Virus record (IMG/VR): IMGVR_UViG_2718218098_000005
Location: 1 to 40,480 of that record
From: a virus
Lineage: Duplodnaviria > Heunggongvirae > Uroviricota > Caudoviricetes
Direction: 5' to 3' (one strand)
Length of the DNA stretch: 40,480 nucleotides
Shown here: positions 23,991 to 36,062 of the stretch, in pieces
Layout of the letters: each line of letters opens with the position of its first letter
Numbering within the stretch: position 1 is the first letter of the stretch
The notes under the pieces: generated by a model
Databases searched by the model: none
Told to the model about the DNA's origin: nothing
The model's input: only the letters and a program-made list of their open reading frames with translations
Program-made: the position numbers and the translations under genes

Positions 23991-24065
<75 letters not shown>

Positions 24066-24068
24066 ATA

Positions 24069-24144
<76 letters not shown>

Positions 24145-24146
24145 AC

Positions 24147-24223
24147 TGGACCGCCACCGGGGACTCGAACCTCGCACACTCAACTTAAAGTGTTGACGCT
24201 CTTTCCTGATGAACTAGTAGCGG
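24147..24223 (-). tRNA. tRNA-like, probable anticodon TTT (Lys) with C33
   Basis: Acceptor CCGCTAC/GTGGCGG, 5-bp anticodon stem TCAAC/GTTGA, loop ACTTTAA, T-loop TTCGAGT, CCA encoded. Confidence 0.5.
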
Positions 24224-24224
24224 T

Positions 24225-24300
24225 TGGTGGCCCTGGCTGGATTTGAACCAGCGACCTGGCGATTATGAGTCGCTCGCTCTCACCACTGAGCTAAAGGGCC
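24225..24300 (-). tRNA. tRNA-Ile2-like (anticodon CAT; ileX/ileZ type)
   Basis: Strong similarity by recollection to E. coli ileX; anticodon loop CTCATAA; CCA encoded. Confidence 0.8.
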
Positions 24301-27388: not shown

Positions 27389-27544
27389 TTACTCCTCAGG
27401 TTCGTAAGCTGTGAAGACAGCGACCTCCGTCTGGCCGGTTCGGATTCGTACCTCGCAGAGGTCTTTCCTCGTTACCAGTGCTGTCACTATGACGGTTAAA
27501 CAGATGACGATCAGGGCGATTAACATCGCCTTTTGCTGCTTCAT
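27389..27544 (-). CDS. hokD: Hok/Gef family type I toxin (HokD/RelF-like, 51 aa)
   Basis: MKQQKAMLIALIVICLTVIVTALVTRKDLCEVRIRTGQTEVAVFTAYEPEE matches HokD by recollection; single TM + conserved Cys. Confidence 0.85.
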   Translation of the reverse strand: MKQQKAMLIALIVICLTVIVTALVTRKDLCEVRIRTGQTEVAVFTAYEPEE

Positions 27545-27732
27545 AGCCTGCTTCTCCTTGACCTCTCGGTCCGTAAGAGGCAATCTATATGTGACGAGCA
27601 TATAGGGGCCTCACTTCGATTTATAGTCGGGTGGGGCTTTTATCTATCTGCCTTTGGTGTTCATGCCTGAGGCAGATAGCCTCAAGCACCCGCAGCAATT
27701 CTACTTAACTCTCCTTTTCCCGCAAACCGTTT

Positions 27733-32971: not shown

Positions 32972-33494
32972 ACGAACCCCTGGCAGACATTTGTTTATCT
33001 GCAAAGTAATATTGATATTGCTGACGATACGCATGCTTGAAAGCAATAGCTTTTTCTATAAGCTCGTCAGTCTCACGTTCCACAACAGATGGATCCGCAA
33101 AAAGCAGCCCGGACTCCACCACATCGCCATATTCTTTGTTTAACCCGGCGATCATGTACGTAATGCTTTTTCCGTCAGTAATTTCACAATACAATCTGAA
33201 ATCGCTGATCCGGATAGCCTCCATAATTGCCGGAATCAGCGCCGTGAATTTTTCCCGCTTATCCCTGGTGTCGATAGCTTTCCAGCGTTCGAATATCTTC
33301 ACCCTGTTAACGCCCAGCGCCCGTTGATCAACCTCGCCATCATTAAACGTGACGCGTTGAACATCGATGTTCGGGCGTTCTTTCAGAGCCCAGAATGCTT
33401 CCGTGATTAATATCGTCGCCTGCTCCTGTGTCATTCCTGGTCGGCATACCCAGGCATCCAGAGCCTCACAAACCTGTTCAGGGATGATTTTCAT
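32943..33494 (-). CDS. YdaT-like regulatory protein (cII-position analogue)
   Basis: 183 aa directly downstream of Cro-like dicC with 17-nt overlap; assignment by position. Confidence 0.45.
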   Translation of the reverse strand: MKIIPEQVCEALDAWVCRPGMTQEQATILITEAFWALKERPNIDVQRVTFNDGEVDQRALGVNRVKIFERWKAIDTRDKREKFTALIPAIMEAIRISDFRLYCEITDGKSITYMIAGLNKEYGDVVESGLLFADPSVVERETDELIEKAIAFKHAYRQQYQYYFADKQMSARGSYEYRCTTMG

Positions 33495-33705
33495 TGTTCA
33501 ACCGCCCCGCCCGCTTTGCCTTACGATATTCGTCATAAACTTTGGGGTCGTACTGAAGTTCCCCACCGGATGCCTCTTGCAGGCGCATCGCGCGACCTTC
33601 AGGAACCAGTTCCCCCCATTGAGAAACAGCAGATGGATCAACACCAGCAGCTTTCGCTACTTTGGCTTTCGTCCCATAAAAATTAATTACGTCTGATTTA
33701 AACAT
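33478..33705 (-). CDS. dicC: DicC/Cro-like small HTH regulator (75 aa)
   Basis: ATG 33705 with GGAGGGG upstream; ..LVPEGRAMRLQEASGGELQYDPKVY..; divergent from dicA. Confidence 0.75.
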   Translation of the reverse strand: MFKSDVINFYGTKAKVAKAAGVDPSAVSQWGELVPEGRAMRLQEASGGELQYDPKVYDEYRKAKRAGRLNNENHP

Positions 33706-33782
33706 CACCCCTCCAAAGTTGAGTTTTCTCAATAGTAATCACTCAAGGAATCTCAAGTCAAGGGTTATTAAGATATCTAAAT
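33706..33782. promoter_or_regulatory. Divergent dicC/dicA promoter-operator region
   Basis: 77-bp AT-rich intergenic with palindrome TTGAG-TTTT-CTCAA (33719..33732); dicA ATG has no obvious SD (possibly leaderless). Confidence 0.6.
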
Positions 33783-34190
33783 ATGAACGAGAAAACTTTA
33801 GGTCAACGAATTAGAGAAAGACGCAAACAGGTTGGTTTAAGTCAAAACGATTTAAGCAAAGCCGCTGGCGTATCTGGCTCATCAATTTCACTATGGGAAA
33901 GCGACCATACAGCCCCGCGCGGGCAAAATTTGCATCGCCTAGCTGAGGTATTGCAATGTTCACCAACTTGGATACTGTTTGGTGACGAGGATAAAACACC
34001 AGATCCACCAGTTGCACTCAACAGCGCCTTAGACTTATCGGAAGATGAGTTGGAGATGTTGCGATTGTATCGCGCACTTCCAAAATCAGAGCAGCAAGCA
34101 CAAATCAGCGAACTCCGTGCCCGCGTTGAGAATTTTAATCGCCTATTCACCGAGCTACTAGAAGCTCGCAAACGTAACAAACATCAGTAA
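33783..34190 (+). CDS. dicA: DicA-like HTH (XRE family) repressor, 135 aa
   Basis: N-terminal XRE HTH (LGQRIRERRKQVGLSQNDLSKAAGVS..); ..LQCSPTWILFGDEDK.. matches DicA by recollection. Confidence 0.85.
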   Translation: MNEKTLGQRIRERRKQVGLSQNDLSKAAGVSGSSISLWESDHTAPRGQNLHRLAEVLQCSPTWILFGDEDKTPDPPVALNSALDLSEDELEMLRLYRALPKSEQQAQISELRARVENFNRLFTELLEARKRNKHQ

Positions 34191-34383: not shown

Positions 34384-34740
34384 GTGGGCGAACTCAAACA
34401 TCAGAATGGAAGGTATCCTGGGATCAGCAAAGAAACAGCAATGGCGCTTTATATTGATATCAGCGCCATTGCCGGACAGGTAAGAATGATCAGAGCGGTA
34501 ACTAAACGGTATGCGCCTTTACTTCAGAAAGTCTCTGGTGAGTGCGCCGAAGATATCGTCAACGATTTCGTCATCGAATTGCGAGGACTCATCTTCAGTT
34601 ACAAGGTGACCACAGTTTTTGCAGATGGCTCCCGCGAAACTGTCAGAGCCCTGCGGTTTAAAGGATGTGTCAAAGACTTCGCCACCACATTCTGGGCAAG
34701 AAAACTTGATTGTATTCATAACCAATTTCCTCTCGAGTAA
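34384..34740 (+). CDS. Alternative candidate ORF (118 aa, GTG start) on operon strand
   Basis: GAGGA 7 nt upstream of GTG 34384; co-directional with dicA operon; no domain recognised. Confidence 0.3.
   Translation: MGELKHQNGRYPGISKETAMALYIDISAIAGQVRMIRAVTKRYAPLLQKVSGECAEDIVNDFVIELRGLIFSYKVTTVFADGSRETVRALRFKGCVKDFATTFWARKLDCIHNQFPLE
34519..34719 (-). CDS. Candidate C4 zinc-ribbon protein (66 aa); mutually exclusive with plus-strand ORF 34384..34740
   Basis: CPECGG...CKNCG motifs; GAGAGGAAA 6 nt upstream of ATG 34719; antisense to dicA operon direction. Confidence 0.4.
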   Translation of the reverse strand: MNTIKFSCPECGGEVFDTSFKPQGSDSFAGAICKNCGHLVTEDESSQFDDEIVDDIFGALTRDFLK

Positions 34741-34811
34741 CAGACCTCTCAGAGGATACCACCTCGCCTGACGTGGTTAAAAGCAGGCAACGCTAACCAC
34801 GAGGAGCCGAC

Positions 34812-35030
34812 ATGCAGAAACGAGAACCCGTCATCATCGCGCCAGACTATACCGATGATGAACTTTATGAGTGGATGCGCCAGAAAATTAATGCAGCGCA
34901 GGATCTGAAATGGGCCAATGAAGCCAGGGCTAAGCAGGCTGAAAATCTGTCCGCTCTGGAGCAGGATATCACCAATCTGGAAAAAGCAGCGGCATTAAGC
35001 ATTGCCAGAATGATTACATACCCACGTTAA
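34812..35030 (+). CDS. YdfC-like small protein (72 aa)
   Basis: GAGGAG 5 nt upstream of ATG; size and position match ydfC of the dicA-dicF-dicB operon; sequence identity unverified. Confidence 0.6.
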   Translation: MQKREPVIIAPDYTDDELYEWMRQKINAAQDLKWANEARAKQAENLSALEQDITNLEKAAALSIARMITYPR

Positions 35031-35052
35031 TAGCTAACCAACGAGGCTAATA

Positions 35053-35460
35053 ATGGAATTTAAAGATTTACCAAAAGAAATCCAGACAATTGCTGCAACG
35101 GCTCTCGGTGATAGTCTGGTGAAAATTGACCCGGCATACACCAAAAAAGAAACCATCGATAATATGGTTCGTAATGTGCGCAATGCTTTTTCTGGGCTAT
35201 ATGGTCCTGATAATCAAAAGCAGGAAAGCGATGTTAATAAACGGGTAATTTCTGTTTGCGTGAATGGCCATGTTCTTTCATCAATCAAAACAGAAACAGC
35301 GACAGTCTTCGATTGCCTTTGCATTGTACAGAGCCTTGTTGATGCCCTGTTTCGTTCAGTGAATTTAGAAAATGATGCAAATCTGCGAGGGCGCACAATA
35401 GCACATCCATATGCACATACTTTAGGCTCTGTGGATATCAAAGATCCCACAAATCTTTAA
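35053..35460 (+). CDS. Hypothetical protein (135 aa)
   Basis: GAGG 6 nt upstream of ATG; no domain recognised. Confidence 0.6.
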   Translation: MEFKDLPKEIQTIAATALGDSLVKIDPAYTKKETIDNMVRNVRNAFSGLYGPDNQKQESDVNKRVISVCVNGHVLSSIKTETATVFDCLCIVQSLVDALFRSVNLENDANLRGRTIAHPYAHTLGSVDIKDPTNL

Positions 35461-35671
35461 TGAAATAGTTAACGCGAATTGTACTTGCTCTTTCAGTTGC
35501 TTTCAGAATACGCGTTGAAACTGCTGGCGGTAATTTGGTATTCCATTTATTAAAATCATGCCCGGGAAAGTACTCTTCGAAAATACTTTTAACTGCAGAC
35601 TCGCCTATTGAAATGCTGCTTACCATGCGATTTTGATAAAGGCATTTAGCAATAAGAGTTGATTTTAACAT
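35438..35671 (-). CDS. Hypothetical protein (77 aa), convergent with and overlapping 3' end of 35053..35460
   Basis: ATG 35671 with AGGAGGG upstream; 23-nt 3' overlap with plus-strand gene. Confidence 0.4.
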   Translation of the reverse strand: MLKSTLIAKCLYQNRMVSSISIGESAVKSIFEEYFPGHDFNKWNTKLPPAVSTRILKATERASTIRVNYFIKDLWDL

Positions 35672-36005
35672 TCACCCTCCTGAGGGTTGGTAATTAAGGA
35701 GTTCTCCACGGGTGAGGTGGAGTGCGTGCGCCGGACACGGGTGAACATCCGGCACAGACAGTTTACTGAAAGGATATTTCCCTGAAAAGTCAGACCATAA
35801 CGCGAAAGCGCACGGCGAGGTAGCTGGTTCATAGATAGCCTGTCGTTAAATTTTCGTCGACCGTGCGCTTCCGGTTGTGGCAATCCGCGAAATGGCGCGG
35901 CGGTAAGTATGGCGGGGTTATTCCTTCCCCCGTTGAGGACACCGGGTTGTCAGGTTGACCATACGCTTAAGTGACAACCCCGCTGCAACGCCCTCTGTTA
36001 TCAAT

Positions 36006-36062
36006 TTTCTGGTGACGTTTGGCGGTATCAGTTTTACTCCGTGACTGCTCTGCCGCCCTTTT
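36006..36062 (+). ncRNA. dicF: DicF small RNA (ftsZ-targeting sRNA)
   Basis: TTTCTGGTGACGTTTGGCGGTATCAGTTTTACTCCGTGACTGCTCTGCCGCCCTTTTT matches E. coli DicF by recollection incl. terminator hairpin; located just upstream of dicB. Confidence 0.85.

Follow-up and report, generated by a model that had tools for sequence, protein, structure and literature searches.

Related Systems

In phage lambda, sieB (34482..35036, +) abuts N (35037..35438, −) tail-to-tail, placing a small prophage gene antisense in the early-left operon, against the promoter-proximal early gene. The same arrangement is found at the locus described here, where two convergent genes encoding proteins of 135 and 77 amino acids (aa) lie between ydfC and the small RNA gene dicF of a Qin-like lambdoid prophage. 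The locus is part of a 40,480-nucleotide (nt) virus sequence of IMG/VR (IMGVR_UViG_2718218098_000005), called the window below, and its region is 100% identical to the Escherichia coli strains M19 and M15. In P22, SieB is made by the prophage and aborts relatives, with P22 itself spared (PMC10883804). SieB differs from the 77-aa protein in size (185 aa by the lambda coordinates), and the latter has no hydrophobic segment and no similarity to it in sequence or fold; no Pfam match was found, and the only PHROG match is phrog_10348. SieB is a membrane protein, and the self-protection of P22 is attributed to Esc, an internal product of sieB rather than a separate convergent gene. Lambda N is an antiterminator, whereas the partner encoded here is without such features.

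Two other phage systems are comparable in their logic. BstA with its aba element is a prophage defence gene by the repressor region, with a dedicated element sparing the phage's own lytic cycle (bioRxiv 10.1101/2020.07.13.199331). It differs in being a large protein, whereas the present locus encodes two small proteins of unrelated families. The BstA antidote is a DNA element within the bstA gene. In Pseudomonas phage Fc02, the lysis-lysogeny region has small overlapping genes on opposite strands, of which one is active in the lysogen and the other belongs to the early lytic operon, and exclusion activity is reported for both (PMC9936078). Fc02 belongs to another phage group, however, and its proteins are unrelated and its overlap geometry is different.

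Type II toxin-antitoxin modules such as PaaA2/ParE and HigBA are likewise made up of two small cognate genes, can be exchanged from one prophage to another and occur within ~1 kb of the locus in related prophages; a further point of resemblance is the disordered tail of the putative neutraliser proposed below. They form co-directional autoregulated bicistrons, unlike the convergent overlapping pair, which shows no consistent charge asymmetry and matches no type II toxin or antitoxin family in Pfam, NCBIfam, PADLOC or PDB profile searches. The polymorphic systems CdiA-CT/CdiI and Rhs-CT/RhsI have a conserved N-terminus, a variable C-terminus and a co-varying small neighbour exchanged as a unit, and this is also the architecture of the six cassettes described below. 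Here, however, the leader is only a helical hairpin of ~50 aa, confined to Escherichia and Salmonella, with no family match and no secretion or delivery domain; the neighbour is convergent, the setting is intracellular and phage-borne, none of the C-terminal domains matches Pfam, and no recognised toxin fold was found.

The closest systems are, therefore, lambda/P22 sieB (with esc) and BstA/aba by position and logic, polymorphic toxin-immunity cassettes by architecture, and type II toxin-antitoxin modules by neighbourhood. The locus cannot be assigned to any of them: in each comparison, at least one hallmark does not fit, be it homology, gene orientation or a delivery domain.

A Hypervariable Two-Gene Slot in the dicBF Operon

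The dicBF operon of K-12 consists of ydfABC, a long untranslated region with dicF, and then dicB (PMC5069750). Its products DicB, DicF and YdfD are toxic to the host (PMC5069750; bioRxiv 10.1101/2023.04.14.536235), and its promoter, dicBp, is repressed by DicA, with DicA/DicC behaving like CI/Cro (bioRxiv 10.1101/2023.04.14.536235). The published descriptions consulted follow the K-12 gene order and do not mention the genes reported here (PMC5069750). The operon in the window is of the dicBF type, as DicF lies downstream of ydfC after a long untranslated region that has its homologue in K-12, but it departs from the K-12 gene content (ydfA, ydfB, ydfC, dicF, dicB and ydfD, with nothing from ydfC to the spacer).

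An earlier note, made from the sequence alone, had given coordinates, lengths and a 23-nt overlap for the two open reading frames (ORFs) that agree exactly with the ORF list. It had stated that K-12 has only very short ORFs here, recognised no domain in either protein, and suggested an acquired cargo module inside a toxic-gene operon. Alignment against Qin of a K-12-type strain (DH1) revealed a clean 634-nt gap over 35051..35684: K-12 reads from ...GCTAA directly into GGTTAGTAATTAAGG, and the K-12-type Qin prophage, thus, runs ydfC straight into the spacer. The extra DNA has a guanine-plus-cytosine content of 0.39, against 0.54 in the adjoining spacer. Pfam, NCBIfam and PADLOC gave no match for either window protein, and the setting inside the DicA-repressed dicBF operon is also as described. 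The segment is not present in K-12-type Qin, and in the hundreds of genomes that do carry it, it is annotated as ‘hypothetical protein’. Acquisition of cargo is too narrow a reading, as the position is polymorphic. The pair is, moreover, conserved across genera rather than peculiar to E. coli. Given the multiple alternative cassettes and the recurrence of the order ydfC-like gene, partner, and 77-aa gene in Proteus, the K-12 state could equally be a loss.

The ‘island’ of the note represents one allele at a two-gene slot of the dicBF operon that is hypervariable. Qin-like prophages of E. coli carry at least six non-homologous two-gene cassettes at this slot, with flanks and architecture in common. 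Among 5426 complete E. coli genomes, and naming each cassette by the lengths (in aa) of its + and − gene products, the window type 135/77 was found in 645 (as the full 975-nt segment), 208/69 in 594, 179/80 in 387, 106/91 in 198, 133/92 in 125 and 201/63 in 8, the six types being counted 1957 times together. An empty, K-12-like junction between ydfC and the spacer was found in ~2695 of the 5426. The window-type segment occurs in O157:H7 and O26 strains, always annotated as two hypothetical proteins; in O157:H7 Sakai, the Sp12 slot is empty and Sp8 lacks the region. Many complete E. coli genomes, thus, carry one of at least six uncharacterised cassettes midway in a well-studied model operon.

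The + genes of all six cassettes begin with a common leader of ~50 aa (MEFKDLP...NVRxAFxGLY), after which they diverge completely. A small − gene converges on the + gene across the cassettes, with overlaps of 23, 41, 23, 20 and 0 nt, and four of the six have a nearly identical 5' leader and ribosome-binding site for this − gene at the edge of the dicF spacer, those of the window preceding unrelated − genes in three other types. The ten proteins of the other five cassettes have no Pfam match and only noise in PADLOC (E ≥ 0.014), and none of the twelve cassette proteins has a known function. In the 201/63 cassette, the C-terminal domain of the window’s 135-aa protein is retained in the 201-aa form together with an additional domain, and the − gene is an unrelated 63-aa gene; the 201-aa form looks like a recombinant that arose at the junction.

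A Conserved Convergent Pair with a Fixed Overlap

Both ORFs are genuine conserved genes rather than chance ORFs. The NCBI Prokaryotic Genome Annotation Pipeline (PGAP) calls both of them coding sequences in the identical strain M19. The length of the 77-aa protein is maintained, at 55-72% identity, in at least eight genera (Klebsiella, Raoultella, Dickeya, Xenorhabdus, Yersinia, Serratia, Morganella, and Salmonella), and a profile search of its family yielded 163 representative clusters, mainly of 74-78 aa. About half of the codon differences in its gene between genera are synonymous (e.g., 28 synonymous versus 27 non-synonymous), and the protein is unchanged between the window and O157/O26 strains despite a 4.5% difference in the surrounding DNA. 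The C-terminal half of the 135-aa protein is, for its part, conserved in Serratia, Klebsiella, Raoultella, Dickeya and Proteus.

The 77-aa gene and the domain formed by this C-terminal half (the partner domain) make up a conserved, obligately linked, tail-to-tail pair with a fixed short overlap. A hidden Markov model of the partner domain was built and run on 80 IMG/VR loci encoding a member of the 77-aa family. A partner converges with the 77-aa gene in 79 of them, and the 80th ends at a contig edge; the overlap is 23 nt in 77 of the paired loci and 26 nt in the other two. Pairing is, therefore, complete in the assessable loci (79/79), although some have diverged to as little as 58% identity. 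In Dickeya and Serratia prophages, the 77-aa gene converges, again with a 23-nt overlap, on a gene of 77-79 aa that is homologous to residues ~62-135 of the 135-aa protein, and two Proteus species have the same pair and overlap, with a ydfC-like gene preceding the partner. Two distant metagenomic relatives, scoring ~81 and 74 bits against the profile, are paired as well, with overlaps of 75 and 20 nt. A scan of genome contigs returned four loci only. In Photorhabdus temperata (L012, 4001..4227), the 77-aa gene is frameshifted at about codon 39, which could be gene decay or a draft-assembly error, and the convergent partner is intact. One pair is, thus, kept with unusual rigidity, including the length of its overlap, by prophages from several genera of Enterobacterales.

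The overlap, TCAAAGATcccacaaATCTTTAA, is an imperfect palindrome. Both proteins end in IKDxxxL, and each stop codon within the overlap is the complement of the Ile-Lys codons of the other gene. Fold and terminator checks led to the rejection of this palindrome as a stable hairpin or bidirectional terminator. An Rfam scan of the Serratia and Dickeya loci detected no elements and no DicF.

The Two Proteins

The 77-aa protein is small and soluble. A structure model gives five helices with high confidence (predicted local distance difference test (pLDDT) of 96), and a structural search of this model against the PDB found no match, as was also the case for a profile search of the PDB with both window proteins. 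Its PHROG family, phrog_10348, is of unknown function and was the sole match when 73 diverse family members were scanned. One public source names the exact protein ‘dGTP triphosphohydrolase’; as neither sequence nor structural searches find any similarity supporting this name, it is treated as a misannotation.

The 135-aa protein comprises an N-terminal leader of two helices (residues 1-55), a disordered linker (46-60) and the partner domain (~62-135), in which a beta-hairpin (65-79) and a long helix (85-111) are followed by a tail that is disordered but conserved (LExEANxxGKTIxH). The invariant residues of this domain are R64, A83, D87, L105, E106, A109, N110, G113, I116 and H118. The protein belongs to phrog_1363 (3.8e-46), of unknown function, with further matches of the N-terminus to phrog_9419, 2151, 6937 and 33007 and of the C-terminus to phrog_23433. 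The leader is not present in the Serratia, Dickeya and Proteus partners. It has two sharply different alleles at codons 8-31 (35074..35145 in the window), KEIQTIAAT... and MPFQEMAAN..., and these combine independently with the C-terminal cassette types, a sign of recombination breakpoints inside the leader.

Promoters and Expression Signals

The 135-aa ORF is read in the same direction as the dicBF early operon, and the 77-aa ORF is antisense to it. As dicBp is repressed by DicA, the + gene should stay off in the lysogen and be switched on by derepression. Outside E. coli, all 14 distinct upstream regions of the 77-aa gene have a TTCACC-like −35 and a TGnTAyyyT extended −10 element ~40 nt before the ATG, which argues for an independent promoter for this gene. 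In Serratia, an S24-type repressor gene is followed by a terminator and a good promoter (TTGACG-N16-TAAACT), and the partner is the first gene behind these. No terminator was found between the convergent genes, so the two transcripts would be mutually antisense.

Possible Function of the Pair

The 77-aa protein may be an effector expressed by the prophage, with the partner domain as its neutraliser encoded in the early operon, a reading to which a probability of roughly one in three is given. The 77-aa gene would then be a self-contained ‘moron’, placed as lambda sieB is relative to N, and probably expressed in the lysogen from its own promoter. The product of the + gene would be made only upon derepression or induction, as a member of the DicA-repressed early-left (dicBF) operon. 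Expression of the two is proposed to be mutually exclusive because transcription of the early operon must read through the 77-aa gene in antisense. The 77-aa protein might act in superinfection exclusion, in abortive infection or otherwise on the host, and the partner domain would bind and neutralise it through the conserved disordered tail, giving the phage self-immunity on going lytic. Swapping of cassettes could then diversify specificity in phage-phage conflict.

The polarity of this model is favoured by the compact, confidently predicted fold of the 77-aa protein compared with the conserved but disordered tail of the partner. The frameshifted 77-aa gene of Photorhabdus and the 201-aa variant, which has no 77-aa gene, would be harmless if the partner is an antidote, in weak agreement with this polarity. 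The model as a whole draws on the linkage of the two genes, the polymorphism of the slot, the expression signals given above and the lambda and P22 precedent, and the PaaA2/ParE and HigBA modules in the adjacent interval of relatives also count in its favour.

Several observations weigh against an effector with its antidote. The AlphaFold2 model of the 135-aa protein is weak (pLDDT 61), and, SieB being a much larger, unrelated protein, the parallel with lambda is positional only. Three relatives of the 77-aa gene are unpaired (L013, L025 and the contig with P0110). The candidate promoter of the − gene (Table 1) is weak, is the only one in the window, was not listed by a general promoter scan, and occurs in K-12 as well, although no gene is located there; the conserved extended −10 is degenerate in the upstream region of the window (GTGGAGAACT). 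The PADLOC-DB v2 defence models do not match the pair, and a literature search of the available library by accession and topic found no study of these genes or of the slot. The signature of an acidic antitoxin and a basic toxin was considered too: the window pair fits it (isoelectric points of 5.9 and 9.5), but it was rejected, as the pattern is not conserved in other genera.

Somewhat more tentative is the wider proposal that the slot encodes prophage conflict modules of a class not recognised before. Each module would be an effector/antidote pair without homology to the others, with lysogenic versus lytic expression hard-wired by the convergent overlap and cassettes exchanged behind a common leader; the 77-aa protein would be an effector of new fold against superinfecting or competing phages, and the partner its self-immunity protein. 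If the effector/antidote model is true, a family of small prophage exclusion or toxin systems has been missed by current defence catalogues, the cassettes constitute a natural set of orthogonal protein pairs, and they could influence how DicF and DicB, encoded further along the shared transcript, are expressed.

The polarity may also be reversed, though this is somewhat less probable: the + protein would be an early host-directed toxin or takeover factor with an exchangeable C-terminal ‘warhead’, and the − protein a constitutive immunity protein or antitoxin that shields the lysogen when expression is leaky or when related phages superinfect. Such a design would suit six cassette types with a constant leader, a variable C-terminus and a variable small neighbour, as well as an operon otherwise full of host-toxic products and a neighbouring interval with toxin-antitoxin modules, and the unpaired 77-aa relatives would be harmless as orphan immunity genes. 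It sits poorly, however, with the Serratia, Dickeya and Proteus partners, which lack the leader entirely, and with Photorhabdus, which retains the putative toxin and has a frameshifted immunity gene. The partner domain is, moreover, small and partly disordered, without a toxin-family match, and no secretion or trafficking domain accompanies it.

That the two are independent morons, accessory genes merely packed tail-to-tail, whose overlap and co-occurrence reflect compaction and co-inheritance, is improbable. Pairing without exception in the assessable IMG/VR loci, its persistence in relatives at only ~74-81 bits, and the joint exchange of both genes in every alternative cassette all run counter to it, even though small unrelated genes make up the mosaic early regions of lambdoid phages, the partner domain sits with a different − gene in the 201/63 cassette, and some 77-aa relatives are unpaired. 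Were the genes inert morons, knowing of them would still usefully correct the map of this model operon.

A lysis-lysogeny regulatory pair, modulating DicA/DicC or transcription elongation, or tuning read-through into dicF/dicB by antisense control at the RNA level with the proteins secondary, is less probable still. In its favour, the pair is directly downstream of the repressor (with the partner as the first early-left gene in Serratia), the − gene lies between the operon promoter and dicF/dicB, where its transcription could interfere with both, and the overlap length is fixed. Against it, no helix-turn-helix or other nucleic-acid-binding family was detected in either protein, roughly every second E. 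coli genome has this operon with nothing in the slot, and a core regulator that comes as six non-homologous cassettes would be unusual. The proteins are, moreover, not mere carriers of an antisense RNA, as both are under purifying selection.

Locus Layout and Additional Observations

The features of the locus are listed in Table 1.

Table 1. Features of the ydfC-dicF region in the window, in order of position.
Feature	Position	Strand	Remarks
Cro-like gene	33478..33732	−	
DicA-like repressor	33783..34190	+	
68-aa zinc-ribbon gene, ‘ECs_2282 family’	34519..34725	−	Antisense, between DicA-like repressor and ydfC
ydfC	34812..35030	+	Conserved left flank of the slot; PGAP annotation in identical strain M19
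Shine-Dalgarno GAGG of 135-aa gene	35043..35046	+	6 nt before ATG
Cassette not in K-12-type Qin, 634 nt	35051..35684		Gap in alignment with DH1
135-aa ORF	35053..35460	+	ATG start; ORF list
Tail-to-tail overlap of both ORFs, 23 nt	35438..35460	Both	
77-aa ORF	35438..35671	−	ATG start; ORF list
Shine-Dalgarno AGGAGG of 77-aa gene	35676..35681	−	4 nt before ATG
Structured spacer, 5' precursor region of dicF	35685..36006	+	K-12 has the same stretch
Sigma-70-like candidate promoter for − gene, TTTTCA-17-TAAACT	35760..35788	−	~88 nt before ATG
DicF small RNA	36007..36058	+	Rfam RF00039, full length, 76.7 bits versus gathering score of 48

The earlier note had also counted ~300 nt of hairpin-rich non-coding sequence upstream of dicF as part of the island. 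This stretch is indeed structured: folding of 35672..36006 gives a minimum free energy of −124.8 kcal/mol (z = −2.5), and 1 of 100 shuffled sequences was equally stable. It lies outside the extra DNA, however, since K-12-type strains have this ydfC-dicF spacer at 97-99% identity, and at 97.5-99% over the ~320 nt after the cassette (35685..36005).

Spacer hairpins differ between lineages by compensatory changes (window 35685..35760; L008 4960..5000; L017 and L019 spacers), for instance, GCCGGA..TCCGGC versus GCCGGG..CCCGGC and CTCCAC..GTGGAG versus ACACG..CGTGT, which suggests a conserved RNA structure in the spacer. In O157:H7 Sakai, a − strand ORF of the spacer is annotated as a coding sequence (ECs_5735; L014 10469..10633). 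The window has a similar 72-aa ORF with a TTG start (35665..35883, −), and this ORF inside the dicF spacer is probably spurious.

Upstream of ydfC, the antisense zinc-ribbon gene takes the place of K-12 ydfA and ydfB. The interval between the repressor and ydfC is a second variable slot in the same operon; in related prophages, it holds PaaA2/ParE (L016) or HigB/HigA (L019). On the 3' side of DicF, the window has dicB, ydfD and then a 2.4-kb exonuclease gene. The corresponding region of E. coli E300010 (L004 3606..4574) contains a truncated dicB, an inserted Rha-family regulator gene and a second, intact dicB. Elsewhere in the prophage, three transfer RNA genes are located at 23994..24300 (−), and a sok antitoxin RNA at 27542..27691 (−; 107 bits) indicates a hok/sok module.

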